Of a DNA stretch of 64,000 bases, positions 1,388 to 49,982 are shown piece after piece. Source of the DNA: Bilabrum cf. latius. Taxonomy: Eukaryota. Below the pieces are notes generated by a model. It had not been told where the DNA came from and did not search any database. It saw nothing but the letters and a program-made list of their open reading frames with translations. The number at the start of each line of letters is the position of its first letter. Positions within the stretch are counted from its first letter, which is position 1. Position numbers and translations under genes: made by a program. Where the stretch lies: assembly GCA_965178125.1 (NCBI GenBank), contig OZ237772.1:62001-126000 (forward strand), written 5' to 3'.

Positions 1388-3907
1388 TCAGTCCATGGAA
1401 GCCTGTCCAGCTCCCACGCTACTACCGCGGCCTTGCACCCATCCATTGGCTGGCAGGCCCTACTAAAAGGCCGAGCCCACCCCAGCTCCCTTCGCTCGAG
1501 GCGAGCCCAGCGATGATGACCCATTCCAACTCTCACTCCCACTCCCCACCATCCCACTCCTACCCCCGTCCCCATCCCACCCACCACGATGATCCCCGTC
1601 CATGGCAACCACCCGCTCCGCCGCTGCCCTAGCCAGTCCCTCGGGCAGATAGCTCCTCTCCCCCAGCGCGCTCCGGTCGAATGACCCCATGATGCTCAGG
1701 ATGGGGGCCTGCCCTCGCTGCTGTGCGACGACACGGGCCTGGGCGCCGGGCACGGCCAGCGACGATCCGGACCCGGAGCCGGAACCTGCCCCCACCGCCC
1801 CCATCGCAGCGGAAGGGACCCTGCCCTCTGCGTTCCAACGCCCCAGCATGCGGGCAAGTGAGGCCGGCTGGGCGTCCATTCGAGTCAGCCTGAGCCCGCC
1901 CTAGGCCAGGGTCCGCTGTGCCTGCCGCTGCACCTGCACCCTGTTGCGGGAGGCAGCCGGACTCAGCGCTGGGGAAGGTGGGCCGCCCGACGACGGCATG
2001 CCGCTGCCGCCGCCCCCTCCCCCTGTCCCGAGCAATGCGCTCCCAAGCGTAGCCGGGCCGCTGCTCGTTGCCGCGCCGTGACCAACCCCCTCCGCGTGTT
2101 CCCTGGCAGGCAGCATCGAGGAGAGCCCCGAGGACGTGGCCGCCTCCCCCCACAGTGGGGACGGACCCCTGGCACTCGCCACACCCCCTTCCCCCCTCAT
2201 GCGCTGCATCCTCTCTGCCCTCCTCCTCTCCGCCTCCCTGTGTTCCCTGCCCCGCTGCGCCTCCTCTGCCAGGAACCGGAGGAACACATGCACGCCGGGG
2301 GGCGCCCACGGCTGCACCCGCACGTAGTCGGGTTTCTTCTTCCTGGCGTGCACCAGCCTCTCCTCCGAGAACCGCATGGCCTGCCGCAGGGCTCCCCTGG
2401 CCACTTCCGGTTTGAGCAGCTCTGCGCATGATGGCAGCCAGTGCGGCGCATTGGGACCCTCCTGTGGCCCGGCCGTGCCCGTGCCCCCGATCCCCCCGCC
2501 CTGCCCCAACATGCGCTGCCTGGCGTGCCTCTGTCTGGCCAAGATCTCCCTGGATGCAGAGGGGGGCAGGGCGGCCACACCGGCGAACAGCACGCACCTG
2601 CTGAACTCGTCCTGCACCACAATGAGCTGCACCCCCAGGTGACCCGTCAGCGACGCATCCGCGTGCAGCGACCACACGGCCATGGGCCTGCCCCCCGCTG
2701 GCAGGGAAGAGTCAGCAAGCGACATCCCCCCAGTGCCCGCCCCGTGTCCTAGCCCCAACAGCCGCGCCAGCCCCCCGCCGCCGTGCCGCCTCGATTTGCG
2801 GGCCTGGAACTGCCCCGACTCCTCCTCGTCGTCCCCCTCGTCACCCCCCTGCATCCCCCACGCGCCCCCTCGGGCTCCTGTTCCCCAACCAGCGCCCCAG
2901 CCACCACTGTTCCCCTCCACCGGAGACCAGGTCGTGGACGAGGCCCCACTTCCCGAGCCCTAGCCAGGGGCAGATCCAGTGGCGGAGGCAGGGGCCCAGG
3001 CAAATCCCTGGCCCTGGCCCTGGGCGGGTCCCGGGGTGACCGCGCCGCCCCGTCCACCGGTGGACCGATCCGATCCCAGGGCCACGACAGTCTCGGTACT
3101 GGGTGCTCGCGCCCCCCACTCTCCATTTGTGCCCTGCGCACCCGTGCCCGCCCCCGCCCCCGCGCCCATGCCCACGCCCATGGTCGGGAACGGCTTCTTC
3201 CTGGCAGGTGCCCCCTGGGTGGGGGACGACCCCGCTGATGACCCCCGAGAGGGGGGGTTAGACCCGAATGTACCCCTGGGGGCGGTGGCCTTGCCCCACG
3301 GGTCCATCGCATCGGATCCGGAGCCCCAATTAGTGCCCTGGCTACCGGAGCGGTGTGCCAGTATCCCAGCCCGCGTCCGCTTTCGGCTGGGCCGGGAGGA
3401 TCCTGCACCACCACTCGCACGAGTGCCCGAGCCAGAGCCCGAGCCCCAAGGGGACGGCGGGCCACATCCCGCGCCCGCGCCCGATCCAGGTGCAGTGTGG
3501 GGCTGGGGCTGGGGCTGGGGCTCCTGAGCTGCCGGCGGTGTCCCCCATCCTGCGGAACCCACGGAGGTGCTTCCGCGCGGCGCCGCCTGTGGAAAGCCGC
3601 CCCACACTCCTGCTCCTGTAGTTGACATGCCTTGCTGCCCCGGTGATGGCTTGCCACCCTGTGCGGACGATGACGAGGAGGAGGAGGAGGACGAGGAGCT
3701 GCTGCTGCTGCCGGGCATCGTGGGAGCGCCCGTGTGTCCCGTGGGGGGTGTTATACCCCATCCTGAGACCATTTCGCCCCCGTGGCCTGTCCCTCTGGCG
3801 ATTTTGCCACCGGAGGGCCCGACGGCTCGCTGCGGCTGAGGTGCTCTCAGCTGGGACATGCCAGATCCGGGGCTAGATTGCCACGTGGAGCCCCAACTAT
3901 CGCCCAT
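1388..3907 (-). CDS. Hypothetical Gly/Ser-rich protein (~840 aa) with a central globular-looking segment
   Basis: ORFs 2960-3907, 1901-2920 and 1463-1879 share one frame, joined across TAG at 2960, 1901, 1463 and 1460. ATG 3907, TGA 1388-1390. No family recognised. Confidence 0.7.
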
Positions 3908-10400: not shown

Positions 10401-13400
10401 GGCCGGTCTGCTGGCCAATGCCGTGGGTCCCCTTGGAGCTGATCGATACAGGGGCATGGTATTGGAGGCAACAGCGTGCGGGGTGACCAGCGGTGGCACT
10501 GTGATGGTGTGCCTGGGTGGGCCTACGCTCGGGCGGCAGCTGGCATTCAGAGTGGTCCTTGGCGCAGCACCGGTGCCCGGGTGTCAGTCAAACAACCAGC
10601 TGGGAACTTCGAGCGACGTCGCGTTCACGAGGATCGGGACTAGCCGGCCGATGCTTCTGCCGGTAGCAGGTGTGCAGCCCAGCGAGGACATCTTCGCCTC
10701 CCCGGCCCAGGTGAACGTGCTTCGGCCAATGAGCGAGTCTCGGGCCCTGACTGCGGCGCCAGGGGTGCGGCTGGAGCACAGGCGCGCACCATACCGCCGC
10801 GTGAGAGAACGGACCCGAGTGCCGACCGAGAGCAGGCCGATACTGGTGTCAGATTGCGAGCCAGCCGCGTCGCACGTGACCCTGCTGCGGGTAGCTGCTG
10901 CCAGCCTGGCCCAAGGCATGTCCGCAGACCAGCGGACCCTCCTGGATGCGATGAGTACGCAGGCTGCAACCAGCCCAGAATTGCACCCAGATGATCAGAC
11001 AGTGTTGTCAATGGGCAGTATCACAGCAATGACAAGTGTGTTCGAACCAGCTGCAGCTGTGGATGCACGGCACGCGCAGCTGGCTGCTAGTGCGAGTATT
11101 CCACATGGGGGGAATGGGGCAGGATCGCCGGCGAGGCGGTTTCCTGACGTGGCATGGGGCACGCAAGGATACTAGTCATCGTTGGCCTCCGGTGGTCGAC
11201 TCGTGAGTCTATCTACCGGTGGATTGGTGTTCGTGAACGGAAGCCAGGATCCGGCCGTTGCCTCCGCCCACTCCGGACCCATTGCCAGCATGGACGGGGT
11301 GGATGTGCACAGGCCGATCGCAATGCCAGTCTCCATGATACAAGGGGCTGGGCCAATGTAGGCGTCAGGTCGGGCCCACTGCTACCTGTGGCCCGAGCCG
11401 ATGGTGTTCGTGCCCACGAGCCGGCACTGGGTGCTGCTCGGTGCAAGCGGGCTGTCGTTGGACGCGGTCGAGGCGGTGATGGGCGGGCAGAGCAATGCGC
11501 TGCACCCAAGTCCAGGCCCCAGTAGAGATGTTTCACTCCTTATTGACGGCTAGGTCCAGCCCCCTGGCTCGTTGAGGCTGCTGGGGGACGGCCTGCTGGA
11601 GCTGCTTAGCCCGGGCGGGGTGGGGAGGAGGCGCGCGCAGCTGATTGTCGCCGGCCGGGCCACATTCGGGGCCGTGCTGGCGTCGGCTCCACCCAGGCTG
11701 CACGGCGTGGCATCGCTCGAGGCGGAACTTCCTGACCTGGCTGCTTCTCTGGATGCCTCATCCCGATCGGATCCGACGTACGAGGCATCTGCGCCAGAGT
11801 CGTGGGGCGGTCTCGGGGCCTGGGACCCTGCAATGCGATGCAGCCGTGTAGTGTTGCTCGGGTTCGATCTGGGGGAACAGTCAGACTATGACCAGGGCAG
11901 AGCATCGGCGCTGTCAGATGCAGATTCTGATGTAGCGTGCGAGTACGTGACACGCGCGGAGTCGTTCAGGCTCGTTTGCTGCACGCGTGCGCGCCAAGGG
12001 CGTATGCAGGTGCGTGCTGCGGGGCACGTTGGCGAACTGCCCTGGTCTTGGACGGAGCTGGTGCACCGCCCCAGAGTCACTGCGGCTGCGCCATCCCTGC
12101 TGAGCACTGCAGGCGGCCAGCGGCTGGCCATCGGTGGAGAGGGGCTGCGAGCCTCGAGCACTGGTGCCTACCGCGGCAATCGAAGCGTGCACTATCGCGG
12201 CTCACAGGCTATCGTCTTGGCTGGACCGCTTGGAACGGTAGCTGCAGGTGCATATAAATCCAATGACGATATTCGTGCCCAGATGCAACCCGGCAGAGTG
12301 ACTACCTTCGGAGCTAAAGACCCGCCAGTGCTGCCAATCCTGGGCAACCTCAGCCAGCTGCATAGGCCTCCATCATCTGTCCTTGGGGATATCAACGTGA
12401 CGGACGTTGACATTCTCACGGGTCCGGTGCTCTACCAACCTGTTCAGCTAGCCATGGATCCGTGGAGCCGAGCATCCTGGGAGCAGGTCAGTCGAGTGCA
12501 CCCGTCCAATGCCTCGACAGGCGCCTGGATGTGCGGACCTGGCGCAGACCAGCAGCCGTGCCCTGCCGCGAAATGGGAGGATGTACATGCCGGACAGAGG
12601 TCAGGGGTCGTTGAGCTGCATCCTGACCATGCCAGGGAACAATTGAGGCTGGAAGGGAGGGAAGGAGACATCACGGAGTGGCAGGGGCACGTGTCGGACG
12701 AGAGCGCCATGGGCCCCGCTGCCTTTGACGGGCCGGCCTCCACGTGGAATGGGCTGGTGGTGAGGGCGCCGGAGCAGCACGGGCCCGGTCTGGAGATGCA
12801 GGTGGCGGTTGCAATCATGGCATACAGGGGGTTCGTGCGTTCCAACGTGTTCTGGGTGCCAACAGAGCCACCGACTATCAGCGGCGTGGTGCCGTCAGAG
12901 CTGCCGGTGACGGGCGGGGTCATCACTGTGAAGGGATCGGGATTCGGGACTGGGGGGGAAGTGGTGGTGCTGCAGCGCATTGCGGTGCATGAGCCGAGGG
13001 CGGGCGTAGGAGCTAGAGCTGCAGTGGTGCCAGAGGTGCTGCGAGCAGCCCTGAATGGGTTGCATCCGGGCCCAAGCGAAACCGCAGGCATGTATGATCC
13101 CGGCTGGGCAGTTGGTGCAACAGATGGAAATATCAGTGGTGCAACTAGCCCCGAAATTGCGCAGCTTTTCTGGCCTGGCGCATTCAGCGTTGGGCCAGAC
13201 GATGACAATCCCCCGACTGGTATTGCTGTGGATGGATCGGGGCGACTCGTACGGCTGCATCCAGAAGGGTCCTCGCAGGCGGTGCATGGCCCCATCGATG
13301 ATTCAACCAGCATGCCGCACTCCATGCAGGTGCACACCAGGTGCAGGGTGCTGTCCTGGAGACATGACCGGATCGACTGCGTGGCTCCCGGGGGACTGGA

Positions 13401-14292
13401 CAAACAGGCACGGGTGCTAGTGTCGGTTGGATGGACTCAATCCAACGAGTTTGGCCACCTTGCATACGGCCCTCTTCGTGTGCCCGAGGTCACCCCGGCT
13501 CCCATCAGCGTCCTGGGCAGGTCGGTCACAGTCCAGACCCCTACCCTTGCCGAGCACCTGGGGATGGGGCTGTGGATCGGAGCACTGCTCGGCCTGCTTT
13601 TGATCCTGCTGCTGGGCGGGCTGGCCTATGCCCTTGGGTGCAGGGCACGGGCGAGGATCGGTGTCACTGTGCCCCTGCCTGCCAAGGAACAGGGCGATCC
13701 ACCGGTGGCTGCGGCCAAAGACGGGATGGCAGACACGGTCTAGCTCGAGAGCAAGCGGGTGGCTCCGATGGGCGGGCTCAGGACCAACCCGAGGATGATG
13801 GACGCAAGGTCGGTGGAGATTATGCACCTGGACAATGAGATATACCGGGGGGGGGTAGGCTTGAACCGGCACAGCGATAAAAGACGCGGGATGGTGCATG
13901 GCAGCAACAGGCTCCTGGAAGGGCCCCAGGAGCACAGATCTTCTTCAATCCGGCGCACTCGCAGGCGGGAGGGCAAGACCACGGTGGTGCTTCCGGGCGT
14001 GCCTGCCTCTGATCTGCGGGAGGCCATGCAGGCGGCTCTGGGGCCCACTCAGCTGCGGGAGTCGATCGAGGAGAGGGCGCCGCTGTCCCGGCCGGGGACT
14101 GGAGTGGGATCAGCTGCGGTGGCAGGCGGGGGTAACTCGGTGTACTTGCAGGATGCCTCGCTGATGGACCGGGAGGAGCGTGCAGCGAGGGCGGCGTGGG
14201 AGGCGGCGCTGCACCGAGCAGCAAGTAGGGTGAAAGGGGCTGGGGCAGAATCGTGGCTGGAGACAGTGGCAGAGAGAGCAATGCAGCCGTGA
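4432..14292 (+). CDS. Giant type-I membrane protein (~3,240 aa): signal peptide, FG-GAP repeats, IPT/TIG-like domains, C-terminal TM helix and cytoplasmic tail
   Basis: ATG 4432 directly follows an in-frame TAA. Signal peptide MSPTFVPLLVALLMVAGVPTVVG; FG-GAP motifs (FGHAVG..VGAPEDD..GAMYVF, FGDSLALS..VAVGAPDD); TIG-like PTISGVVPSELPVTGGVITVKGSGFG; TM LWIGALLGLLLILLLGGLAYALG. One frame with 13 exonic TAG (4561, 7288, 7420, 7735, 8782, 9559, 9811, 10039, 10042, 11173, 11359, 11551, 13741). TGA 14290. Probable intron 4822-4950. Confidence 0.85.
4822..4950 (+). other. Probable spliceosomal intron (129 nt, phase 0)
   Basis: GTGAGA...CCGCAG, lower GC than flanks; removal gives the FG-GAP motif VGAPEDDEQGQNA|GAMYVF. 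Confidence 0.75.
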
Positions 14293-17375: not shown

Positions 17376-20300
17376 ATGCGGGCAATAGCTGCTGCCGCAG
17401 TCGCAGCAATACTGCTAGCCTCTGGTGGGAAGACACAGTCTCCGTCTCCCGCAGCCATTGGCACGTTCTCATCGGTTACAAAGATTGCCCAGAACATGAG
17501 CGGGATGCCGCATGATTTGCCTGGTGGTTTCGACCATTTCGGAGATGCTTCAGCCGTGGTGGGAGACGTGGACTAGGACGGCACCGAGGACCTGGCTGTG
17601 TACGCCCCGCGGCGCACCATCAGCGAGGACTCGCAAGGCGCGTTCGTTATGCTGTTCATGAAGCCCGATTCCACAGTGAAACGGGTGCAAGAGTACCATC
17701 TGGGCGCTGGAGGAGGCATTTCTAACTCGATTGCCGGACAGACCTCTGGGCACTTCGGTGCCGGGCTGACTAGATTCGACCAGCCGTTGGGACACCAGGC
17801 AGACGTGCTCCGTGTGTTTGTGGGTGAGCCTGGCTACATGAACAATCAGAGCTCTAGAGCAATCGGGCGCGGCTTCATCTTGCGCGTATTACCCAGCGGG
17901 AACGTGACTAACGTGGCTGTCGTAGACAACTCCGAGTTCAGCCAATACCCCGGTGGTCGTTTCGGGAGCTCATCGTGTTTTCTGGGTGACCTGAATGGAG
18001 ACGGGCTCGTAGATCTGGCGGTGGGCGCCCCAGGAGCAAGCACCAGCTTCACGGATGGCGGTGCAGTGCACGTGCTGTTCCTCGACTCGAATGACACGAC
18101 AAGGTGGACAAACATGCTGACGTAGGCAGACGACTTCGGGGTGATCTCGCCGATGCAGACTGGACTTGGCGTCTCTATGGCATCTTTATTGCCCCGGCTG
18201 GCTGGCAATCCTGTGGATCTTGTGGTGGGCGTGCCATCAGGCGATGTGGCGGTGTATGTGCGGCTGAACACGGTTGGTCGCGCAATTTCGGGGTCCGCAC
18301 GCTTGTTGAAGAACGGTCATTCTGGCATTCCAAACGGGACCATCTCATCCTAGTCGTACTTTGGGTATCGCATGACGAGTGTGAAGGATGCCAACGGGGA
18401 CGGCATCCAGGACCTAGCAGTGGCGGCTGTGCTGGACGACACGGAAGGGGCAAATGCTGGAAGAGGTTTCTTGCTGCTGATGGCCTGCAACTCAACGGAT
18501 CAATCGGACCCACTGGTCAAGGATGTGGTTGCAATATCAAGGAGCTCGGCTGGTTTTGAGTCCCATGTGCAAACTGGGGCGAGATTCAGCGTGCAGAGCG
18601 CTTTCAACGATCTCAACGGAGATGGGCGCGTAGATTTCGTGTTCGGCTTACCGTACGACCCCACAGGAGCAGTCCAAGCTGGCGCCATTCTGATTGGAAC
18701 AATGGAGGGACCTGCACCAGCGGCGTACCATTCAAACTGTGTTGCGCCCTCACCATCCAGCGTACCATCATCGACACCAAGTCCTTTTTCGAGTAACACA
18801 ACAAACGTCACTGCCTCAGCAACACCCAGCAGCGCCCCCACGGCATCAGGCACGCCCAACGCCACTGCCTCAGCAACACCCAGCAGCGCGCCCACGGCAT
18901 CAGGCACGCCCAACGCCACTGCCTCAGCAACACCCAGCAGCGCGCCCACGGCATCAGGCACGCCCAACGCCACTGCCTCAGCAACACCCAGCAGCGCGCC
19001 CACGGCATCAGGCACGCCCAACACCACTGCCTCAGCAACACCCAGCAGCGCGCCCACGGCATCAGGCACGCCCAACGCCACTGCCTCAGCAACACCCAGC
19101 AGCGCCCCCACGGCATCAGGCACGCCCAACGCCACTGCCTCAGCAACACCCAGCAGCGCGCCCACGGCATCAGGCACGCCCAACGCCACAGCCTCAGCAA
19201 CACCCAGCAGCGCGCCCACGGCATCAGGCACGCCCAACGCCACTGCCTCAGCAACACCCAGCAGCGCGCCCACGGCATCAGGCACGCCCAACACCACTGC
19301 CTCAGCAACACCCAGCAGCGCGCCCACGGCATCAGGCACGCCCAACGCCACTGCCTCAGCAACACCCAGCAGCGCCCCCACGGCATCAGGCACGCCCAAC
19401 GCCACTGCCTCAGCAACACCCAGCAGCGCGCCCACGGCATCAGGCACGCCCAACACCACTGCCTCAGCTACACCCAGCAGCGCGCCCACGGCATCAGGCA
19501 CGCCCAACGCCACTGCCTCAGCAACACCCAGCAGCGCGCCCACGGCATCAGGCACGCCCAACGCCACTGCCTCAGCAACACCCAGCAGCGCGCCCACGGC
19601 ATCAGGCACGCCCAACGCCACTGCCTCAGCAACACCCAGCAGCGCGCCCACGGCATCAGGCACGCCCAACGCCACTGCCTCAGCAACACCCAGCAGCGCC
19701 CCCACGGCATCAGGCACGCCCAACGCCACTGCCTCAGCAACACCCAGCAGCGCGCCCACGGCATCAGGCACGCCCAACGCCACTGCCTCAGCAACACCCA
19801 GCAGCGCCCCCACGGCATCAGGCACGCCCAACACCACTGCCTCAGCAACACCCAGCAGCGCCCCCACGGCATCAGGCACGCCCAACACCACTGCCTCAGC
19901 AACACCCAGCAGCGCGCCCACGGCATCAGGCACGCCCAACGCCACTGCCTCAGCAACACCCAGCAGCGCGCCCACGGCATCAGGCACGCCCAACACCACT
20001 GCCTCAGCTACACCCAGCAGCGCCCCCACGGCATCAGGCACGCCCAACACCACTGCCTCAGCAACACCCAGCAGCGCCCCCACGGCATCAGGCACGCCCA
20101 ACGCCACTGCCTCAGCAACACCCAGCAGCGCGCCCACGGCTTCAGGCACGCCCAACGCCACTGCCTCAGCAACCCCCAGCAGCGCGCCCACGGCATCAGG
20201 CACGCCCAACGCCACTGCCTCAGCAACACCCAGCAGCGCCCCCACGGCATCAGGCACGCCCAACGCCACTGCCTCAGCAACACCCAGCAGCGCGCCCACG

Positions 20301-21524
20301 GCTTCAGGCACGCCCAACGCCACTGCCTCAGCAACCCCCAGCAGCGCGCCCACGGCATCAGGCACGCCCAACGCCACTGCCTCAGCAACACCCAGCAGCG
20401 CGCCCACGGCATCAGGCACGCCCAACGCCACTGCCTCAGCAACCCCCAGCCTTGCGTTTATGCCGTCCTCGTCACCATAGATGTCTTCGTCTTTAATGCC
20501 AAGCTTCAGCTCTGCTCCCTCTGTTGCGGCAACGGGTGCAGCATCTATCAGCCCTGTACCTCAGTGCAGCGATGGGGTATTGAACGGTGATGAATCAGAT
20601 ATCGACTGTGGTGACATCTCCGTGGATACGTGTCCGAAGTGCGCGGAAGGGTGGCGTTGCTTGGATTCGCTGAGCTGTGAGGGAGACCTGGTCTGTGCGA
20701 AGAGTACCAAGCGGTGCGTGGAGCGTGTGCGTCCTGCAGGTCTCTGGATCAGGTTTCTGCTCCTCAGGATCCGTGGCAGTTACTTTGCGAGGTTCCTGCA
20801 AACACTCCTGCAAATTCTGCGACGTGACCTGATGAGGGTTTCCTCGTCCACGAGTGTTGTGACATTCCAGAGAGTACAGCGGCGTCGCTGGGGCAGGCGA
20901 TCTCGCACGTTGCAGGCGAACGGAAACGACGATCTCGTACCACTAGACGAGCCCAGTAACGCTGGGAATGCCACGGGAGTCGAAATAGACCTCTCTGTGA
21001 TGCTGCCTGGAGGCACGGAAGAGCAGGCAGCTCGCAGCCTGATCGTGGCATACATTGAAGGCGACGGCAGCGGCAGCGGAGCAGCAGATCGCCTGATGCG
21101 GTTGCTTCAGGAAGCCGTCAGTAGCGGTAATTATACTTCCCTCCTATCATCGCTGCGAGCCGAGGCACCTGCGGCAGAACTCACTGATTTATCGGTCGAG
21201 ACTACGGAGATGTAGGTGGAATCTGAGGTCCTGGATACACCTGAAGTTGTGGAGGAAGCTGCTACTGTCATTCGGCCTGGCAACGTTATTGACAGTGATG
21301 AGAACGAAGATACCCTCATTGGCTTGCCCTTGGCAGCAGCAGTTGCCGTGCTGTGCGTGGTTGGAGTGGCCTTTCTGGTTGGAATGTACGTGATGTATGT
21401 TTACTGCTCGCGTACCCACTCCAAGGTCTATGAGAGCAGGATCGTGGAAGAGGACAACACCACTTCGAGCTCGGGTGCGTATGACCAGAGTAGGGCTAAT
21501 GCCAACCAACTGGGGGTTGTGTGA
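17376..21524 (+). CDS. Type-I surface glycoprotein (~1,380 aa): signal peptide, FG-GAP repeats, mucin-like stalk, Cys-rich module, TM helix
   Basis: MRAIAAAAVAAILLASGG signal; Ca-binding loops GDVD*DGTEDLAV, GDLNGDGLVDLAVGAP, DANGDGIQDLAV, DLNGDGRVDFVFG; CSDGVLNGDESDIDCG module; TM LIGLPLAAAVAVLCVVGVAFLVGMYVMYVYC. Five in-frame TAG (17574, 18123, 18351, 20478, 21213); TGA 21522. Confidence 0.9.
18807..20450 (+). repeat. Coding tandem repeat, 54-bp unit x ~30.4 (ATASATPSSAPTASGTPN)
   Basis: Unit GCCACTGCCTCAGCAACACCCAGCAGCGCGCCCACGGCATCAGGCACGCCCAAC; near-identical copies with a few recurring variants (GCC/ACC, GCG/GCC, GCA/GCT). Confidence 0.97.
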
Positions 21525-25591: not shown

Positions 25592-27856
25592 TTAATCCCT
25601 ATACATCGCCACCCCCTCGCAGGCCCGCCGCACCTCGAGCCTCCACGCGGCCTCCTGGATCTCGATCTCGGCACTGCCATTTCCATTTCCACTGCAACTG
25701 GTACTACCGCAGGTGGCGCCATCACTCAATCCTACAGAATACCCCCCTTTTCCGAGCAGCTCCTTTGCGGCCTTCTCCTTCTCGCCGTTCCAACCGGGCA
25801 CCCAAGGCGCCGCCTCTTTGCCTTCGCCAATGTCCTTGCCACCTTTGGCCGACTCCCGCACCGCCACCAGCCCCGCGGCTGCCGCCCCAGCTGCCAGAGG
25901 ACCCGGAGCTGACAGACATCCCGCCTGCTTGCCCCCCCCGCACCGCCACATGAACCCAAGCGCGATCGCGTGGGGGGACGAAGCCCCGGCCGCGACACCC
26001 GCTCCCCACAGCACGCACAGGTGCTCCAGCTCAGGGAACACAAGCACACCCGCGTGCGCCGGCAGCTGGGACCGGAGCCTGGGCAGGTCAAGCACCGTGT
26101 CCCGCTCCCCTGTGAGGCACAATATCCTCGTGTCAGCTCCGATCGACTGGAAGGGGTAAGCGGGGGGTACGGAGTGCCCGGATGCCGGTGCGCTGTTCCC
26201 TGCCCCATCAAAGCACCGCAGCTGTCCCGACCGGATGGCCTGGAACCAGTGCTGCACTGTCCTGACGGACGCAAGAGAGAACACGTGCTGCATCAGACCC
26301 TCCATTCTGGCCCGAGGCACGGCCCACGACCCGCACTCCCACCCGAACAGGAACCGCATGCACACGAGGATCCAGTCTGCCCACGCCCCCACCGAGAGGA
26401 TCCGCTGCCACTGAGCCGCATAGGGCACCATGGCCATGCCGCCGAACAGCAGCCGGAACATTGTTCCCTGGTCCTCTGTCTCCAGCAGGGAGCTCACCAC
26501 GCTCCTCTGCAGGCCTCGCACGGCGATGGCGGGGGCCAGCGCCACGAAGCAGCGAACATTGTTCGCCAGAGAAGGGTTCGCTGCCAGGGAACAAAACGTC
26601 ACCGCCGTCCCCTAGCTGAACCCCACGATAGACACCTTCTCGGAATGCGCGGCGCCCAGTTTGGTTCCGCTACCGCCGATCCCCCCATTGCCCTCCTCGT
26701 CTTCCTCGCGTGGGTCGGCACCTCCTGTAGTGATGCAAGCCGTGCTCCCGTTCGACCCCTCGCTTTGCTTGCCCTCGTCCGCGCCCCCATCAGTATCCCC
26801 TACATGCCCGTCCAGCTGCCCCCCACTCGTCATCATTCTCACAGTAGCACCCGCCCCCCTCCTCGCCCCCCTGGCCCCCTGCATGGCCCGCACCATGGCA
26901 GGCACGTCCCTCCTTGCCACATCGTCCAGCCCGAACTTCCAGAACGACTCGGTGCCCTGGTGCCGCTCCGGGTCCGTGTGCTAGCCGGAATATCTATTTC
27001 CCCGGACGTTCCCCAGCCACACGTCGTACCCTGCCTCTGCCAGGAGGAAGCCCAACGACTCGTGCCCACCGCAGACGAACGTGTCGGAGCACTGCATCAG
27101 CCCGTGCAGGAGGAGCACAGGAGGGCCGAAGGTGGGGCTGTTCCGGTGTATAGAAGCGGTCGGGGGCTCGACGGGCTGTTGGTCGGGGTGGGTTGTACGT
27201 GTTCGTGATTGTGTTTGTGCGTGGCATGGCCCCGGCCCCGGCGGCACGCTGGTGCTGCTCGCCGCTTCCAGTGCCGCGGAGGCGGAGGCCTCGCTCCCCG
27301 CTGCTGTGCTCAAAGAAGGAGCGCTCCCAGAGATTGGCGCTGTGCTGCGATTGGCAGGTAATATGGGTGGGTCATGCTCCCCGGCGGGGTCAGTTGAGGT
27401 CGTTGTTTCCGAGGGCGGATGATGCACGGATTCTGCTCGGCTGCACTATGCTCCGTGCGCATTTCGGCCACTCGCTGCAACTCGAGCCAGCGGATCCAGT
27501 GACGGTGCGACAATTCTTTGCAAGCCGAGCACATATCCATCCGAAGTGATGGCCTGGTGCTCCTGGCAGCCCCAGCCGTGCTACCGGATCAAATCGGCAG
27601 CGGACGGGACAGCTGCCGCCCCGAGTTGTGTTGGTTGGCCAATGATGCCTTCGGCTCCATCGTAATCCTGCTGGAGACCTAGATGATACGCAAATATCCG
27701 ACGGAGCGAAGAGCTGTGCTGGTACAAAGTGTCCAAGACTGACGGAAATGGGAACGACTTGTACAGGAACGTCAGCAGCGCCTGGCCCGCTGCCGATACT
27801 ATCACCGTTGCAGCAACAAACAAGAGCCAGAAAGTTTTCCAAATCGCATGGATCAT
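25592..27856 (-). CDS. Acid lipase / steryl ester hydrolase (abhydro_lipase, gastric lipase/Tgl1-Yeh family)
   Basis: DLIR*HGWGCQEHQAITSDGYVLGLQRI; PVLLLHGLMQCS; LAEAGYDVWLGNVRGNRYS; FWKFGLDDVARRDVPA; nucleophile VGFS*GT; Asp in GERDTV; His in ELEHLCVLWG. TAG at 27581, 27446, 26981, 26612; ends TAA 25592. Confidence 0.92.
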
Positions 27857-28272
27857 ATCGATCTGCAGTTTGCCAGCAGCAACACGAATGGGGTCCGGAG
27901 AACCAGTTTTTGGTGGTGCTCCGAGTTGCCGCAACGGGTGCGAAGGGTTTCAGCCACAGGATTCAATCAAGGATGCGTAGGCGCTCACCAGTACAATCTG
28001 ATGAATTAATGTGAGAGGCAGTGCGTATCTGCGGCATAGTATTGTCAAGGCTGCACAGATAGTGTATATCCACCAACAAACTGTTGCTCCCTGCTGTCGC
28101 AGAGAAACATTTTGTGCGCGCCTAGTCAACAACATGGTCCGATGCGGCGCCGAGGGACAGGAATTAGGGATGTTACTCTCTGCGATGTCAAGATCGTACC
28201 CGCTAGAAAAGAGTAAGGGCATTCACTTCACGGTCATATTTGTTTCGCTCTTCTTTGGAAAATTTGCATGCC

Positions 28273-30144
28273 ATGGGGGCGCACAAAGCCAAAGCGGAGC
28301 CCTATGATCTGCTTAATAGCGCAGATTTATCTAAGAGCCGGAAAGCCGCAGAAGATAGCGACATCGATAGCGAAGACTCAAGCGATGCCGGCGACGGCCG
28401 CAGCCCCGGGACCGATCTGGCCCTTACGGCGCTTTCCAGAGGAGCCCCAGGCATGCTGGGGGATGCAGAGGTCCTCGAGAAGGCGCCTTTTTTGCGTTAG
28501 AGCCCGGCTGCCCTGCTTCGCGCGGCGGCTAGGAACTCCCGTGGTGGTGTCGGCGCCGCGCGCAAAGGTGCTGGTTCCGCAGCAGGCGCCATGCTGCGAC
28601 CAGCCCGCGTGCACGCGGTGCTTGCGACCATCTCCAACGGTGGTGTCCCTCGCCTGGCTACCCTCAGCAGCACAGAGGCCGCTGCAGTGGCGGTGGAATT
28701 CGCCTCGGCTGCCGTCGGTTGCAACCGCCTCGAGGGCCCAGCCAGCCTCGAGACAGCGGCGCACGCGTGCGGCAGCCTCCTCGAGTCTCTGGCGAGCTAG
28801 TCCTGGGGTGGGGGTACGGGGGGCAGGGGCAGCGCGGGGCGCGCGGAGGGGGGCAAGGCCGGCTGGGGGCTGCTGGGGGCCTGGCTGCCGTACGTGGGTG
28901 CGTGCGCGGCGCTGCACCACGCGGAGCTTGCGCTGGGGAACACGAGGAAGCAGGGTGCTGGTGCTGGTGCTGGTACTGGTGCTAGTGCTGGTGCTGGTAT
29001 GGAGAGTGATGGTCTTCTAGCATGGAATCGGCGGGATGCCGCCCTCAAGAATCGGATCAACGAGCTGATCCGATCCGCCGTGCTGGTCGCAGATGACGTG
29101 GTTCGTGAGGAGCCGTGCGCCCGGTGGGTTGGGGAACAAGCGGAGGAGGCGTCCGAGGGTGGTGAGGCATGGTTCATGGGGTCGATCGGAGCAGCGCTGG
29201 GGGCAGCGGGTGGGGTGGCATCGGGGTCGTCGATCGGAGCAGGAGCCCCGCCTCGGTCCTCGCTGCGGGGCGGCTGGCTGGGAGCAGACGCCATGGAGCA
29301 GCTGAGGTCTCTGTCCCTGGGCGACGCGGGGCGGGAGCGTGCCAGCGATGAAGATGAAGAAGGAAACCTGCGAGGGTTCGTCGTTGACAGCGAGGAGGAA
29401 GAAAGTGAAGATGAAGATGCGCAGGAGAGTGAGAAGGAGCACGATTGGGACAGCGATGAAGATGAAGATAGGCACCGTGGCAAGCGCAGGGGCCGGACCA
29501 GCGGCAATGGGAGCAAGCGACGCGGTGTGACGAGTGTGAGCAGGGGCAAGGGACGGCTTCGCCGCCGCAGGACCAGCGGCCGGGCACTGGTGGAGAGCCC
29601 GATGTCCGAGGGGGTCGGTGCTGGAACCAGCCCTTCCCTCTTCCCTGGTCCTGGTCCTGCAGGTGGCATGGCTGATGGAGGAAAGGCCACGCGGAAGGAA
29701 AAGAGTGCGAAGCAGAAGAAGAAAAAGAGAGGGAAGGACAAGGACAAGGACAAGGACAAGGACAAGGACAAGGACAAGGACAAGGACAAGGACAAGGACA
29801 AGGACAAGGACAAGAGCAAGGACAATGGGTCAAGAGCCGGCAGGGCATTCGGCTCCTTGCCAGTGGTGGACCTGACCACTCCGTCCCCTCAGAGCAAGAG
29901 CAAGGGCAAGAGCAAGGCATAGCCCGAATCTTCGGCAGCGATGGTCGCTGGCCGGAAGCGGGCGAGGGACGGTGCCATGCCGCCTGCAGCCGCAGAAGCA
30001 GAGAGCCCTGTTGCCGTCGGGTCCAAGAAGAGGAAGAAACACAAGAAAGACAGGAGAGTGAGAGGCCGAAAGAAGGGTGGCAAGCATGCAAAGGCAGTGG
30101 AGGATAGCAAGCAACCAGCCAAGAGACGAAGGATTGCTGATTGA
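28273..30144 (+). CDS. Hypothetical, probably nuclear, protein with acidic and Lys-rich tail
   Basis: One frame across TAG 28498, 28798 and 29920; TGA 30142; basic NLS-like clusters. Start codon uncertain. Confidence 0.65.
29734..29814 (+). repeat. (AAGGAC)13 coding microsatellite encoding (KD)13
   Basis: Perfect hexamer run visible in sequence. Confidence 0.95.
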
Positions 30145-38079: not shown

Positions 38080-38471
38080 TATGGGTCGCATCCGGATGGT
38101 AGCATCCCGTATCCGGTGCATTTCCAAGATGCCATGTACAACAACGAAAATCCTCTGTGATTCCAGTTCCGATTATGGAGCAACTAGACTAAAGCAGTAG
38201 ATCTACGGCTCTGCTGCCTACACGTTGCCGGTCACGGATGCGTTGCCACCGTCAGGTTTGTTCCTGCCACCGTCAAGTGCATCCAAGGGGATTGATCGCT
38301 GAGAGCCTAGAGAGTTTACGTAACTTACTGAGATCCAAAATGGATCCGATTTGGATGTACCCTGTACATGTTGAACTGGCGGTAATGACAGCAACTTACA
38401 AGGAGTTGAGCATAGAAAACCACTACCTGCCAGCGCCTGTGACATTAAACACAGGAAGCAATCGCCACTCC

Positions 38472-41400
38472 TCACAGCAGCTTTGGTTTCTCGAGCAAGA
38501 AGGCCATTGTTCCTTTGCCTACATCCGCTCGCATTAGCCTGTCCATAACCTCTCTCCTCTCTGCGTCCTTCTACAGAGAAGCAGCCAGCCGCTCCCGCCT
38601 CGCCTCCTCCTTCCTCACCGCCTCGTCTGCCCTCACAGCCCCCTGCGACCGGTGCTTGAGCGACCTGTGCCCCAGCAGCGGCTCTTCCTCCTCCTCGACA
38701 TCGTAGGCACCGGTCTTGAGCCCGCCTCCGCCCAATCCACCCGTGGATTGCGATCCCTGCTGCAGGTGCTGCTGCCGCTGCTGCTGCGAACCAGCAGCAG
38801 CACTAGCCCCTGCCCTTTGAGCGCCCGACCCCAGCATGGGGGCAGTGGACCCCCCGGGGAAATCACCCCCCTCCCTGCCGTGACTCTTGCCACCGGGCTA
38901 CCTTAGACCGCCCGCACTCGTCACACGATTGCCGCCCTCTCTGTTCCCCCGCCTGGGTCCAGGCTAGGCGCTGGGCGGTGCAGCGATGAACGCGGGCCCC
39001 ACCCCCGGTAGCTTGGACCCGAGGGGCAGCTGGGAGGACCCCACGCGCACCGTGCTGTCCATGGGCTCTGTCCCCGGCTCGAAATCGTCCTCCTCCTATT
39101 CCAGCAAGGAGAGCATGCGGCTGATGCGCCTGTCCCTGCGCCTGGCCTCTTGGCGTGCGGCGGTGACTCCGCCTGCGCTGCTGTTGTTCCCCGGATCTTG
39201 ATCCGATCCTCCGTGCTCGTCCTTCTCGCCGGTTCCGTCCCTCGACCGCCCGCTGCCCGGCTCGACCCCATGCCCCGCCCCTGCCGCCGGCCCCGTGGCC
39301 GCACCCGCGCGGCGCCTACGCCTCGGCGGAACGTCCTCCATCGCGTCGTCCGAATCCTCGTCCGCGTCCACTATGCCACCGGCCCCTCGCGCACTCGTCA
39401 CACCGTCCAGGTCCCCCAGCAGGCCCGCCACGTCCCCCTCCCCATCGACCTCGTGCCCCCTCGAGGTCGCATTCCTGGTCTGCGGCCTGGGGTGCACCCT
39501 CACGTTGTTGGCGTGAGGCACGGGGTCGCTCGGGTGCGCGGTTGCAACCACCACGGCGGGGCCCCCCATTCCGATTCCGGATCCCTTGGATCCGGGCCTG
39601 GACGGCGTGGCCGCGTGGATGGTCGCAAGCGCCTCCGGTCCCACGGATGCCTCCACCAGCCTGACGAGTGCGCCCACCCTCCTGAGCGCCTTGGCTAGCA
39701 GGAGCCTCGCTTCCCTCCCCTGCCTGCTTACATCCACCATGGACACCACAGAGCCACCCCCTGCCCCTGCCACCCCGCCCCCGCCGCCCCCTTCCTCCTC
39801 CGCAGCCGCCTCCTCCCTCTCCAGCCGGTGCAGCAGGTCAACGGAACTCTCGCTGTATGCCACGCTCTCGTCATCATCGTCGTTGGCCTTGCCATCATGC
39901 TCAGTCTCACGTTCGTTTCCGTCCTTGCCCTCGCCGTCGCCTGCTCCAGCCCCGGCCCGCCGCCCCCTGCCATGCACACCCTCTTCCTCCTCCTCGGCCG
40001 GGCCTCCAGCACCCACCAGCTTGCGGCCGATCCCGAGATCAGCGGACGCTTCGCCACCGGGGAACACAAGGCCGGTCGCATCTTCATCTTCGTTTCCCGG
40101 ACCCTCATCACCCCCCTCGTGCTGCTCCCCTGACTTGCCCTCGCTACCCCATCTGGACCCCGGGGAATTCCCCTGGGCGGACCCCGCTCCCCCTTTGGGG
40201 GACAGCTTGCGACCCCTCGCCTCCTCCACCTGCATGGCTCTCTGCAGCAGCCCCTCAAACGGTTGCAACCGCTGCAGGATGCCCAGCGCCCCCTGCCGTA
40301 TGCCCACCACGGCCCCTTCGTACTTGGTCACCTCCGCCTTGAGCTTCCTCAGCCTAGAGGCGGCCGCGCTGGCCTGCCCCTTCGCCTCTTTGGCCCTCTT
40401 CTCCAGCTCCTCCACGTCGTCTGCGGAACCTCCGCTGCCGTACGCGGCGCCGCCCGCACCCGGTTCCGCGCCGGTGGCCTGCAGCACTTTGAGCCTCTCC
40501 TGGGCCGCCTGCAGCGCCGCTTTGGCCGCCCCCAGCCGCCTCTCGGCTTCCTGTCTCTCCCGCCGCACTGCCCGCCTCTGCTGCCCCTGACTCACGAAGC
40601 GCTGCACCATGTCCGTGAGTGACGTCACTCCCAGCAGCTGCCTGATCCGATCCAGGGTGTGCTGCAGCCCAGCCGCCTCGTCCTCGCGCTTCGTCCTCTC
40701 CTCTGACAGCTTGCCCAGCTCCTCCTCGATCTGCTTCTTTTGTTCCACCAGCTGGTCCTCCTGGTCCCGGGACAGATCTCCAGCTAATTTGGCCGCCATC
40801 TCCGCCCTCGCTCCCTCCCTCTTCTGCCTCCACTCCTCCGCGGACCGGATGTTCTGCGCCTCTCCCCGCTTGGCGGAGATCTTCGCGTGCCTCCTCGCCC
40901 TGGCATCCTTCGCCTGCTTCTGGCGCTTCTTGAGCTCCTCCCTTGCCTAGGCCCTGCCCGTCTCCATGACCCGCAGGCTGCGTCTCACGTCACCCAGCTC
41001 CCGCTTGGCCACCGCCAGCGCGTCATCCATGGACTTGACGTGGGACGTGAAGGTGACGTCGTTGGCAGCGAGCCGGTCTCGCATGTGGGTCAGCTGCCGC
41101 TTTCGGAACTCCTTCTCCCACATGCGCTCCGTGGCCTCCTGGATGTGCCCTTGCAGCTCCTGGATCTTGACCGATTCCGGCGTGGCGCCGGGCGCGAGCG
41201 AGGCGTTCTCCTTGCGGATCGACTCGATGTTCGACTGCGGCGTGTGACGAGTGATATGATGGGGATTGAGACCAGTGTGATTCGGGCAAGTTATGGTCCG
41301 GGCTACTCGGTGCGCTGTATGTTGAAATCAGTCTGGGTAGCCCCGGCGGCAGCAGTGCTTGCTCACTTGGACTTTCTCGATCTCTGCCTTTTTGGCAGTG

Positions 41401-46065: not shown

Positions 46066-48427
46066 ATGGGGACCCATATATCATTATTTATAGTGATAGT
46101 ATTGGTAGGCTTGGGCTAGATTGCTAGCACCAGCGAAGTGTTGGAAATTCAACAAGATTCAGACCTTGGCGACGCAGTTGCTGAAGGTTACCCAGTTATC
46201 GCAATGTTTTACGCCCCAGTAAGGCCCACTAGTTGTTTGAATAACGCCAGTTTGGTGCATTTGTACGCAGCATATCGTCTATGATTTGGTATTTGTCAGC
46301 TTATGTTGTCCGCAGTGGTGCGGGCACTGCAAGGCTCTCAAGCCTGTATTTGCGAACGCCGCCGCAGACTCAGCGTGGGAGTCGCAAGCTTTAGATGATT
46401 TGTGGGCGAAAAAAAGCGAGCATGCTGTCGATAGCATTGGCCCGCACGCGTCTTTCATGCGTGTGAATTGCGAAGCGCACAAAGGATTGTGCGAACAGCA
46501 CGGAGTGAAAGGATACCCTAGCGTGCTGGCCGCCCGTCCCGCTGCACCATGCGCGTCCTCAGATACTAACGACGCGATGGGGCAGTCCAACTGCGGACCC
46601 TCCTCCTCCCCAGTGTTCCGCAAATTTCGCGGCGCCAGGGGCCGGGCCCAGCTCGTGGCCCTTGCGACAGCCCTCAGGAGGAGACCCGTCGCCGCGCTAT
46701 CCTCTGGAGATTCCCTAGCCGCCGTGGCAAGAGACGAGAGCGTCGCCGCTGCGCAGAGAGCCGCACACGTCCTCCGCAACCGAGCCAAAAAAGAAAAATC
46801 CAAGTCGGGCCAGGCCAAGCGGGAATCGAACCTGGCGGACCAGGCGTCTGCGGGGCAGGCACCCGCCGTAGTTGCACTCGTCACAGGGGACAGCGCCGCC
46901 CAGCTCGAGCAGGCTAGCGGAGGAAAGTTCCGCAGCGTGCGCGGCGCCGCGAGCCGGGCCCTGGTGGAAGCCCTCCGAGAGTGGACGAACTCCGACGAAG
47001 GTTCCTTCGGACTTGCGGCCGTGGTGGGAGCGAGACCTGCTGATGGACAAGGGGTTGCGCCGCCTCCTCCTCCCTCGGTGGAGCATGCCAGGGGCCTCCA
47101 CACCGAAGCCACTGCTGTGGACTGGGCCGCGGTGCACGAGGCGGTTGCAACCGCTGGGGCCATTCTGGTGAGGGCGTAGTGGGGTTCCGGTTTTCTGCCC
47201 AGGCGGTCCGGGGAGCTCGTCGGAAAGGTGGACGAGGATGCACTGCATGGTGGTGCTCGGCTTCGCCGGCCGGGCCGTGATATCCCCGCTGGCCGCGGAT
47301 AGTCGGTATCGATCCCGCGCCTCCCGCCGCAGGAATCCCCCGCGCTGCAGTGGACCGAAGTTGTGGTGGACGCGTTCGAGGTTCCGCAGGTCAACGGAAC
47401 GTTCGACGCTTCGTATGTTCCGCAAGCGGCTCCGCGCTGGCTCAAACGGGCGACGCTGCCCCTCGTGGTGCGAACCGACGCCCACTCGTTCAGTCCACTG
47501 GTGGGCACGGGGTCACTCCTGGCCATGGGGGTCGTTTCCACTGCCACCAAGCGCTCGGCAGCTGCCGCGGTGCGCGCCACCACGTGGCTGGCAAGCCTCG
47601 CGAGCCCTCACTCGTCACACCTCGAGGCCTCGGTCCGGGAGCGCTTCGCCTTTGGCATCCTAGACGCAGCCGAGTACGCGGATTTCGTATCCGAGTACAA
47701 CATTTCCGCTGGGGAGCTGGCCTCTGGCCTGTCCCCTCCCCGGCTGCTGGTCGTGGACCCGCAGTCCAAGGTGTTTTACGAGGACTCGACGGTTCGGGAG
47801 AGGGAGGATTTCGAGACTTTTTTGAAGGACGTGGCAGCGGGTCTCCATCCCGCGCAGAGGTCCGGAGTGTGGAGGCTGCCGCAGCGGGTCTGGAACGCCG
47901 TTTGGTTTGGGGGTCCCACGGAGCGTTGGGTCGCGATCGCAGTGGGTCTTGTGCTTGTGGCGGGGTGCATCGGCGTGGGCTGGGCGGTGTGCTGCCCCGG
48001 TGGGAAGGAGGGGACGGGGGCTGTCAATGACGGTAGGGCTGATGGAGGTGGTGAGACCGGGGAGTAGGGTGCATCGCATGGTGGTGAGGATCCGATGGAG
48101 GAGATGTGGAGGAGCGGTCGAGTGCCTCCCATGGACGAGTAGGACGAGGATTAGGAGGTAGGGGACGATGCGGTGGGAGGTGCGATTGGTGGAGAGGAAG
48201 AAGATAATTAGGGCGGGGTGGAGGATGAGCAGGAAGCGATGGGAGAAAGTGAAGGTGAGCAAGGGCACGGCAGCGAGCCAGTGGGCATGGCAGTGGCGGG
48301 CGACAGAGATGACCCCCAGCTGGCTAATGCCGAAATTGATGACCACATCAATTGCAACTAGGAGGACGGTGAGGAGGATGGATGGGTGGAGGCAGGCGGG
48401 GGGCTGAGGCAGAGAAGGGGGCAGTGA
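46066..48427 (+). CDS. Membrane-anchored protein disulfide isomerase (TMX3-like): signal peptide, CGHC thioredoxin domain, TM helix, acidic tail
   Basis: Intron 46219-46315 (GTAAGG...CCGCAG) joins MFYAP|WCGHCK; TM WVAIAVGLVLVAGCIGVGWAVCC; tail ends GLRQRRGQ-TGA (48425), reached only by reading through TAG. Eight TAG (46117, 47177, 47300, 48065, 48140, 48152, 48209, 48359). Confidence 0.88.
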
Positions 48428-48819
48428 AACCCTTTTCTTTGTCTTTGGCAAAGCTCCGATCCGATCCCGGATCACGCGATGCATGCCTGCCAACGCTGAT
48501 CCTGATCCTTCGGATCGGGTTCACATTTGCAAACTTTCACAGTTCAAGTATGCAGTAAGGATATTACATACGTCTGCACGAAAAGTAAGACTCGACCAGC
48601 AATCAGGCACATGCACACCAAACAAACACGCTGCAGAGCCGTGGCTCCTGCAGACGAGCAAGCTCGTACATCAGGCGCAATGGCTGCGTTGCCTCTCGCC
48701 GACCTCACACACTACACAAGTAGCATGCTTCATATCCTCACCATTGCACGTGCATGAGTCCAATTTCGATCGAGCCACTTGATCAGTACTGCAGTGAACT
48801 GCACCCGAAGCTGCACTCA

Positions 48820-49982
48820 TCACAGCTGCCCGTCCCCCACGGTGTCCCCCGCGGCGCCCAGCTGCACGTCAGACGCAGCAGCGCCGGAGAACATGGCATC
48901 GTCATCATGCCCCGCCCTCGCGGCGCGGTCCTCGAACCTCTCCGAGGAGGTCATGAGGCTCTGGTTGTTGGCCCCACTGTCGGCGGTGCCGGCCAAGTAG
49001 CATCCCAGGAGCGCCAGCCAGATGGGCTGCAGGATGAATCCCACGAAGGCGATGGAGATGCCGGAGATGACAGAGAATAGCCTCCAGTTGCCGAAGCGCG
49101 CGAGCTCCAGAGCAAAGTTGAGGAAGGCCAGGGCGCCCGCACCCGCCCCGATGTACCCGTGCCACGTGGGAAGCACGCCGAACCTGAAGGTCGCAGATGC
49201 AACCGCGATCAGCCCGATGGACAGGAGCAGCTCGTCCAGCGCGAAGAGCCACAGGGAGGACGACTGGGAGATGAAGTCGGCGATCCATAGCACGCGGAGG
49301 GCGGTGGAATCGAGCTACCAGTCGTCGCCCGACATCCAGTCAGCTGCGGTGCTGCGGCCCGCGCGGCCCACCAGCTCCAGCCCGGTGATGATGGCGGCAC
49401 CAGCGAACGCAGGGACGAAGACCGAGGTCTCCATCACGCGAGGCCCGAACATGGCACTCAGCGCCAGCAGGGGAGGGATGACGGCGAAGGCCGCGATTGC
49501 CTCCACCACGTCGAACGCGATCTGAGGGCCCAGGACCTTCCGGCGGATCTCGTAGTCGTTCTGGATGCAGATGGTGACGTCGGGGGCGGGCGCGTCGTCG
49601 TCCTTGGAGGGAAAGTTCGCCAGCTCATTGCGGAGGTCGTCAAAGTCGCACCCGTCCACCTCGTTGTTGCTGGCCTGCGGTGCCACAGTCGACGGTGCGT
49701 TTTATTGTACATGATATAAACAAATCAAATCGCATCGAAATGCCTTATTGTTGGCTCCACGGCAGGCGGGAGCGCAAGAGCGAAGGTTCTGGCATCTCCC
49801 GATTGCGCTCCATTGCCTGACTTCTGCTAGCACCCGTCAGCATCATGACCTATTTAGCCAGTATGTAGTCTCACAGTTATTGCGATTCCGATCACCAGTG
49901 CGGTAGACAGGAAAACAGCACCTGCTGCCGAGAATGCGCACACCTTGGGGACAGTTGCGTCGAATGGTGCCGCGTTCGACAT
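48820..49982 (-). CDS. Multi-pass (about 6 TM) membrane protein, ~320 aa
   Basis: Exon 1 MSNAAPFDATVPKVCAFSAAGAVFLSTALVIGIAIT; intron 49675-49874 (GTGAGA...CCGCAG, phase 0); one TAG at 49315; TGA 48820; several hydrophobic segments. Confidence 0.75.

Follow-up and report, generated by a model that had tools for sequence, protein, structure and literature searches.

Reassignment of UAG alone to glutamine (Gln), with UAA and UGA kept as stop codons, has been described in few nuclear genomes. A literature search found it for one fornicate and two ciliates, and none of these cases was a genome rich in guanine and cytosine (GC) that ends its genes mostly with UGA; subscription journals were outside the coverage of this search. 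In Iotanema spirale (Fornicata), UAG encodes Gln, and UAA and UGA are stops (Panek et al. 2017, PMC5304391). UAG is also a Gln codon in the phyllopharyngean ciliates Hartmannula sinica and Trochilia petrani (McGowan et al. 2024, PMC11687900). Here we report on a gene from Bilabrum cf. latius for a predicted acid-lipase-family alpha/beta hydrolase. It lies on the minus strand of a 64,000-nucleotide stretch of DNA (contig OZ237772.1, positions 62,001 to 126,000), hereafter called the window, and it carries a TAG codon directly after the codon for the nucleophile Ser. This TAG, at 26614..26612, is very probably an ordinary sense codon that is read as Gln and supplies the conserved Gln of the G-F-S-Q-G motif in an intact hydrolase. 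As judged from protein sequence comparisons, the firm call of Gln rests on this nucleophile elbow and on data from relatives together. The code of the window is of the known rare kind, in which only UAG has moved to Gln and UAA and UGA remain stops, here in a GC-rich genome that ends its genes mostly with TGA.

The likeness to I. spirale may extend to the dispensability of UAG as a terminator, and in both cases the reassignment was inferred from in-frame UAG at conserved Gln positions. The preferred stop differs: UAA is the main terminator of I. spirale (104 of 119 transcripts), whereas TGA ends 10 of the 14 frames that terminate in the window, and TAA ends four, the lipase among them. The material differs as well, with 126-730 transcripts in the I. 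spirale study (PMC5304391) and 64 kb of DNA at 62% GC with 7+6 comparative sites here. The two ciliates share with the window the change of UAG alone to Gln and UAA as a stop, and a suppressor tRNA with a CUA anticodon was proposed for them; they prefer UAA, unlike the window (PMC11687900). Code 15 of crAss-like and other gut phages gives the same codon the same meaning, but it belongs to phage genomes and is tied there to phage gene expression, whereas the window holds eukaryotic gene families (PMC9523058). The code of NCBI table 6 (ciliates, dasycladaceans and Hexamita), in which both UAA and UAG are Gln, has TAG as Gln in common with the window. It was considered for the window and rejected, as there are no in-frame TAA codons against 95-102 TAG codons, and four frames end in TAA. 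The window, 64 kb rich in GC with 16 long genes spread over its two strands, appears unlike a ciliate macronuclear genome.

The lipase gene and its relevant codons are as follows.

25592..27856, minus strand: predicted acid-lipase-family alpha/beta hydrolase gene, 754 codons, from the ATG at 27856..27854 to a TAA, with four in-frame TAG codons
27581..27583, minus strand: in-frame TAG no. 1, residue 92, in the N-terminal Abhydro_lipase region, at a variable column
27446..27448, minus strand: in-frame TAG no. 2, residue 137, within a disordered insert specific to the lineage
26983..26981, minus strand: in-frame TAG no. 3, residue 292, at a Lys-dominated column, in R-G-N-x-Y-S-x-K-H
26609..26623, minus strand: nucleophile elbow G-F-S-(TAG)-G, with the Ser codon AGC at 26617..26615 (S414)
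26614..26612, minus strand: the elbow TAG, directly after the nucleophile Ser; residue 415 counted from the ATG (P0001 numbering: 441)
26101..26099, minus strand: codon GAC of the catalytic Asp, residue 586 counted from the ATG
26023..26021, minus strand: codon CAC of the catalytic His, residue 612 counted from the ATG
25594..25592, minus strand: lipase terminator TAA, marked by the end of the frame and a change of composition downstream

A reading made from the letters of the window alone (the sequence-only reading) had placed a TAG within the minus-strand bases ATC GTG GGG TTC AGC TAG GGG ACG, between 26600 and 26635. These 24 bases occur once in the window, at 26629..26606, inside that interval, and the codon could be located precisely. 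Under the standard code, the frame is broken at all four TAGs into pieces of 91 to 336 codons. The standard-code open reading frame (ORF) at 26612..26920 ends in '...VSIVGFS', and the next ORF picks up a few codons later. If TAG counts as sense, a single frame without a stop extends from 27934 as far as the TAA at 25592..25594. The ATG at 27856 (Met27 of the stop-to-stop frame) is the same start Met as that of P0054, a protein fragment from a relative. Since the first ATG coincides with the start of P0054, the gene is taken as 25592..27856. GC at the three codon positions is 0.65/0.55/0.72 in the gene and 0.56/0.44/0.50 downstream of the TAA. Two plus-strand ORFs over the site (25970..27208 and 26430..27422) match no Pfam family, and they are regarded as shadow frames of a GC-rich gene.

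TAG in the lipase was translated as X so that the amino acid was not prejudged. Pfam recognizes Abhydro_lipase (PF04083; 3e-13, 49.5 bits against a cut-off of 27, residues 113-145 of P0001) and Abhydrolase_1 (32.4 bits against a cut-off of 25.8), the two profiles that the sequence-only reading had proposed as a check. A sequence search of the PDB returned only dog gastric lipase 1k8q (3.2e-32), human gastric lipase 1hlg and human lysosomal acid lipase 6v7n. An AlphaFold2 model built on 106 homologues has a predicted template-modeling (TM) score of 0.74, and 341 residues have a predicted local distance difference test (pLDDT) score of at least 90. A fold search of this model with Foldseek places the same lipases at ranks 1-4 (1k8q, two chains of 6v7n, and 1hlg; E 1.5e-20 to 4.7e-18) with TM scores on the target of 0.76-0.81, and generic hydrolases follow at E of about 1e-5. 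By Pfam, PDB sequence search and fold search, the gene is thus assigned to the acid-lipase family of alpha/beta hydrolases. The model has a strand at residues 408-413 followed by a helix from residue 415, which is the usual strand-turn-helix elbow.

The elbow TAG is followed by 339 further codons. The Asp and His of the triad, which had been described as downstream of the TAG and intact, are matched in alignments by the catalytic Asp and His of the gastric lipases of dog and human and of human lysosomal acid lipase. The Asp matches the G-G-N-D / G-G-K-D segment, and the His matches Y-N-H-L-D / W-E-H-L-D. In a MAFFT alignment of 106 homologues, the nucleophile column is Ser in 105 of 105 occupied cells, the Asp column is Asp in 100 of 106, and the His column is His in 98 of 106, the other eight cells being gaps. 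With Gln at the elbow, the protein agrees with the majority residue in 59 of the 63 conserved columns, and all 63 are in frame across the four TAGs.

The solved enzymes (1HLG, 1K8Q and 6V7N) share with the window lipase the Abhydro_lipase region, the alpha/beta hydrolase core, the G-x-S-Q-G elbow and a Ser-Asp-His triad in identical order. The window lipase has 18% identity to them in structural alignment. It has Phe rather than His before the Ser, as do most non-mammalian homologues, and it adds an N-terminal hydrophobic helix, a C-terminal extension of about 130 residues that is also present in a relative, and three long inserts. In the model these inserts (residues 132-238, 337-398 and 658-724) are disordered, with pLDDT below 50 in the first. 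The inserts are of low complexity and low confidence; one immediately precedes the nucleophile strand, and a relative has an insert there with a different sequence.

The column occupied by the TAG is dominated by Gln. Among 1.84 billion representative proteins, 5061 matched at E <= 0.001, and the best 150 of these were inspected. Among the 148 of these that span the elbow, Gln occupies the column in 132, Asn in 11, Met in two, and Glu, Leu and Ala in one each; Lys, Tyr and Trp do not occur. GFSQG is by far the commonest form of the elbow among these best 150 matches, and GHSQG is found in mammalian enzymes. The TAG aligns to the Q of GHSQGT in all three solved acid lipases. The MAFFT set was hand-picked without regard to the elbow residue, and mostly long multi-domain matches, fragments and lower ranks were excluded; its elbow column contains 94 Gln, nine Asn, one Glu, one Met and one gap, and the flanking columns contain 105 Gly and 97 Phe. 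The family motif had been given as G-[HF]-S-Q-G, and these homologues support it as G-[FHY]-S-Q-G. The G, F, S and G of the window elbow are encoded by ordinary codons, and the elbow conforms to G-x-S-Q-G only if TAG is Gln. In the enzyme, the residue after the nucleophile contributes its main-chain NH to the oxyanion hole, as described for Gln154 and Leu67 of gastric lipase (PMC6268779).

Such columns are scarce in this family. Of the 371 well-occupied columns, Gln reaches 80% in just two: column 415 (90%), where the window has the TAG, and column 539 (93%), where it has CAG. The chance that any of the three alignable lipase TAGs falls on a column of this kind is approximately 3 x 2/371, or 1.6%. 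The placement of the TAG is therefore beyond chance. Taken alone, the elbow column favors Gln about 63-fold over Glu and at least 190-fold over Leu, Tyr, Trp and Lys, the latter figures being bounded by pseudocounts. The elbow had been singled out as the best single-site evidence for Gln over Leu, Glu, Tyr or Trp. These odds bear that out; the elbow serves well as a diagnostic position, and of the TAG sites found in the window it carries the most information.

Protein fragments in public sets provide a second line of evidence. The 3286-codon gene with FG-GAP and TIG domains (4432-14292, plus strand) is present there as separate fragments that are 99-100% identical to the window. P0152 and P0153 are 100% identical to the window gene and each ends exactly before a TAG; P0155 is also 99-100% identical. 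Fragments from relatives (60-88% identical) cross seven window TAGs, at which they have Q, Q, Q, Q, Q, E and G. The fragments that cross are these.

P0154, 88% identity: two TAG sites crossed, with Q and Q
P0161, 74% identity: four TAG sites crossed, with Q, Q, E and G (the G in low-complexity sequence)
P0027, 60% identity: the elbow TAG crossed, with Q, reading ISIVGFSQGTAVTF

The log-likelihoods over these seven sites are -11.9 for Gln, -18.9 for Glu, -24.2 for Arg, -25.4 for Asn, -28.1 for Lys, -29.7 for Tyr, -31.8 for Trp and -35.4 for Leu. Gln leads the next candidate by 7 log units in a small sample, with substitution frequencies drawn from the same alignments.

The mirror image of this test looks at where the fragments of relatives stop. 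Six of them end inside window genes, presumably where the relatives have stop-like codons, and the next window codon is TAG in two cases (P0054 and P0161), CAG in three (P0154, P0162 and P0157) and CGG in one (P0027). Three CAG codons at four non-TAG ends is far above chance, because Gln codons make up only 3.8% of codons. P0054 is 93% identical and ends exactly before lipase TAG no. 1 (27581..27583), which suggests that its source has a stop-like codon at this position. P0157 (88% identical) ends exactly before the Gln of HWFQ, encoded in the window by CAG at 26240-26242 (minus strand) and located in the other column of the family that is at least 80% Gln. The source of P0157 seems to encode this Gln by a stop-like codon, as a mirror image of the elbow.

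The behavior of TAG at the elbow is that of TAG throughout the window. The window has 16 long frames on both strands, and Pfam places among its gene types RCC1, ankyrin, WW, an iRhom-like rhomboid, a dual-specificity phosphatase, FG-GAP/TIG, thioredoxin and HEAT. In the standard code, the longest stop-free frames have 1499, 804 and 733 codons. These values rise to 3286, 2782 and 1961 when TAG is freed, compared with 1499, 804 and 749 when TAA is freed and 1512, 1499 and 1050 when TGA is freed. There are 102 in-frame TAGs in the 17,769 codons of the 16 frames, 15 of which contain TAG. Ninety-five of these codons lie after the first ATG; the other seven lie upstream of it and may be non-coding. 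Frames 48589..49719 and 38193..40133 (both plus strand) match no Pfam family and were excluded from the codon counts. Several TAG-bearing frames have Pfam domains on both sides of their TAGs. TAG density in the frames is 5.5-5.7 per 1000, near the frequency of the trinucleotide (383 in 64,000 positions). Some TAGs lie inside poly-Gln runs, for example QQQ-TAG-QQQQQQQQ. Gln is enriched 1.68-fold beside TAG, and TAG beside TAG 5.1-fold, counts that are suggestive only.

TAA and TGA do not behave in this way. Neither occurs internally in frames of up to 3286 codons, and every frame with a 3' end reaches one of them. Coding-like GC at third codon positions (GC3) persists in most tails up to the TGA or TAA, and GC is lower after the TAA terminators. 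The ratio of CAA to CAG is 164:512, which would predict about 30 in-frame TAA codons if TAA were also Gln; none is seen. TAA is not a Gln codon, given no internal TAA against 95-102 TAG and four frames that end in TAA. TAG is thus a sense codon throughout the window, and TAA and TGA still end genes. The window belongs to a GC-rich, gene-dense eukaryote, and its genes have few or no introns.

A tRNA-Gln with a CUA anticodon would decode UAG and not UAA, as in the mechanism proposed for other UAG-only codes (McGowan et al. 2024, PMC11687900), and eRF1 would no longer act on UAG.

Several results weigh against this interpretation, and they concern its mechanism, its stop codons and its amino acid. 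A tRNA-gene scan and an Rfam scan of the 64-kb window gave no match, and the Pfam scan of the frames found no eRF1 among the window's genes. The absence of internal TAA and TGA comes from one window and is partly circular, as the frames are delimited by these codons; the circularity is limited, because frames of 2000-3000 codons without TAA or TGA are not a chance outcome. The relatives are known from proteins alone, so that TAG at the ends of their fragments is inferred. The elbow column is not invariant, with Asn in the 11 homologues counted above. TAG no. 3 (26983..26981) lies on a column with 67 Lys, eight Arg, six Gly, four Ser and, at the lower end, one Gln among 104 occupied cells (64% Lys, 1% Gln). 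Three closer relatives also have Lys at this position; if the TAG is Gln, it is a Lys-to-Gln replacement. TAG no. 1 falls on a variable column (20 Ser, 10 Leu, nine Ala, nine Glu, eight Tyr and, among the rest, two Gln), and at TAG no. 2 a gap is present in all but two of the 106 homologues (104). The log-likelihoods over the three alignable lipase TAGs are -8.26 for Gln, -9.11 for Lys, -9.46 for Asn, -10.56 for Glu, -11.56 for Leu, -12.28 for Tyr and -16.21 for Trp. The lipase alone favors Gln over Lys only about 2.3-fold.

The remaining adverse points come mostly from other genes. In the ankyrin gene, the well-aligned TAG at codon 1374 corresponds to Glu in a relative, and the TAG at codon 1269 corresponds to Gly in low-complexity sequence. 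TAGs in the rhomboid and the phosphatase align to Asp of solved structures, at variable positions. An FG-GAP loop at 17574-17576 (plus strand) reads D-V-D-TAG-D-G where three sibling repeats read D-x-N-G-D-G, and no search aligned the position of this calcium-loop-like TAG. A likelihood based on neighbor composition ranks His, Met, Tyr, Ile, Gly and Val above Gln, all near background, with Lys worst and the only residue clearly disfavored; its calibration is too optimistic, as the test sites were drawn from the training data. Another TAG, in an FG-GAP gene, aligned to Ile in a weak stretch, and no TAG of the RCC1 gene was covered by the alignments shown. TAGs in the rhomboid, phosphatase, RCC1 and FG-GAP domains were considered as diagnostic sites and set aside as uninformative, being at variable positions or unaligned.

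The alternative that survives best is a dual TAG, which would be Gln within genes and a context-dependent stop at some gene ends, as in karyorelict, Condylostoma and Blastocrithidia-type codes. The procedure itself leaves room for it, as reading through TAG everywhere would also pass a true TAG terminator and prolong the gene until a TGA or TAA followed. In three frames the last TAG has only a short tail behind it, of 21, 23 and 32 codons, and one of these TAGs belongs to a tandem pair. Two such pairs are in frame.

1460-1465, minus strand: tandem TAG-TAG pair, 23 codons before a TGA terminator
10039-10044, plus strand: tandem TAG-TAG pair, in the middle of the 3286-codon gene

The second pair shows that the arrangement is not confined to gene ends. 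All 14 frames reach TGA or TAA, most with tails of coding-like GC3, and the near-trinucleotide density of TAG fits an unrestricted sense codon. In the UAG-only codes on record, UAG was never a terminator (PMC5304391). A dual role of TAG is accordingly improbable.

It is very improbable that TAG is a sense codon for an amino acid other than Gln. Lys, Glu and Asn would be the most tolerable of these, and further known reassignments are to Leu, Tyr and Trp. Lys draws support from TAG no. 3 and from its closeness to Gln in the lipase, Glu from the ankyrin TAG, and Asn from its 11 occurrences at the elbow, and the two domain TAGs point to Asp. The elbow itself speaks otherwise, with Glu and Leu in one homologue each and Lys, Tyr and Trp in none. 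The lipase alone rejects Leu, Glu, Tyr and Trp but not Lys, and the exclusion of Lys follows from the relatives' data: Gln is far ahead of Glu, Asn and Lys at the seven crossed sites, and CAG follows three of the four non-TAG fragment ends. The Lys column is less telling than it looks. The 17 ordinary CAG and CAA codons of the lipase in alignable columns are mostly on columns dominated by other residues, among them Glu (77%), Leu (75%), His (73%) and Val (69%), and a Gln codon over a Lys column is thus nothing unusual in this gene. In a published comparison, only 44% of canonical Gln codons lay over Gln-dominated columns (Panek et al. 2017, PMC5304391).

Editing of U to C in the RNA, by which a TAG in DNA would become CAG in the mRNA and be translated by the standard code, is extremely improbable. 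It predicts Gln at every site, and DNA alone does not distinguish it from a change in the tRNA. Stop removal by U-to-C editing occurs in some plant organelles. Such editing would restore TAA (as CAA) and TGA (as CGA) just as well, yet neither stop is in frame in about 17,000 codons, against 95-102 TAG. Moreover, the genes of the window are of nuclear type (RCC1, ankyrin, WW and dual-specificity phosphatase), and we know of no nuclear system with U-to-C editing that removes stops. The chance that TAG is a real stop, in a pseudogene or a split gene or through a sequencing or assembly error of CAG, is practically negligible: the fragmentation of the frame in the standard code and the pieces P0152, P0153 and P0155 in public sets, the first two of which end at TAGs, would agree with it, but the 102 TAGs in 16 frames come without TAA, TGA or frameshifts, the lipase keeps its conserved columns in frame and its triad across four TAGs, relatives keep stop-like codons at matching places (P0054 and P0161) and Gln at others, and a single codon within G-F-S-x-G is not removable by an intron.

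Other features of the window can be noted. In the thioredoxin-like frame at 46241..48427 (plus strand), the W-C-G-H-C active site (46316-46330) is upstream of the first in-frame ATG (46457). For this gene, an exon further upstream or a start other than ATG is probable, and the genome may not be free of introns. An FG-GAP gene contains a 54-base unit repeated 30.5 times (97% matches) at 18804-20450 (plus strand). The repeat is without TAG and encodes an 18-residue unit that is rich in Ser, Thr, Pro and Ala and has a mucin-like look. A microsatellite, (AAGGAC)x15 at 29734-29825, gives a K-D repeat in the plus-strand frame 28015..30144 and L-S repeats on the other strand. The GC peak of the window (0.69-0.74), at 52001-60000, lies inside the 2782-codon Ala/Gly-rich frame with a weak HEAT match, and this region has many long shadow ORFs on both strands. 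The sole long frame without TAG is at 62463-63998 (plus strand); it has 512 codons, runs off the window and matches no Pfam family. Its neighbors in the ESM Atlas are kelch/beta-propeller clusters (scores 0.88-0.90), which is a lead only.

The assignment of UAG to Gln has practical consequences for this genome. Standard-code gene calling fragments its proteins, and annotation and homology searches are degraded until the code is corrected. The lipase elbow offers a convenient single peptide for a mass-spectrometric test. Codes that separate UAG from UAA are rare, and the case described here bears on the release-factor and tRNA routes to that split and on whether base composition drives codon reassignment. 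It is tentatively suggested, with somewhat less than even confidence, that the window represents a eukaryotic lineage whose code has so far not been reported as deviant, in which UAG-only Gln arose independently in a GC-rich, UGA-terminating genome. As relatives that are 60-93% identical share the change, it would then be clade-wide rather than confined to a single species. If true, the rare UAG-only code would have originated separately here, in a composition opposite to that of the described cases, where UAA is the main stop.

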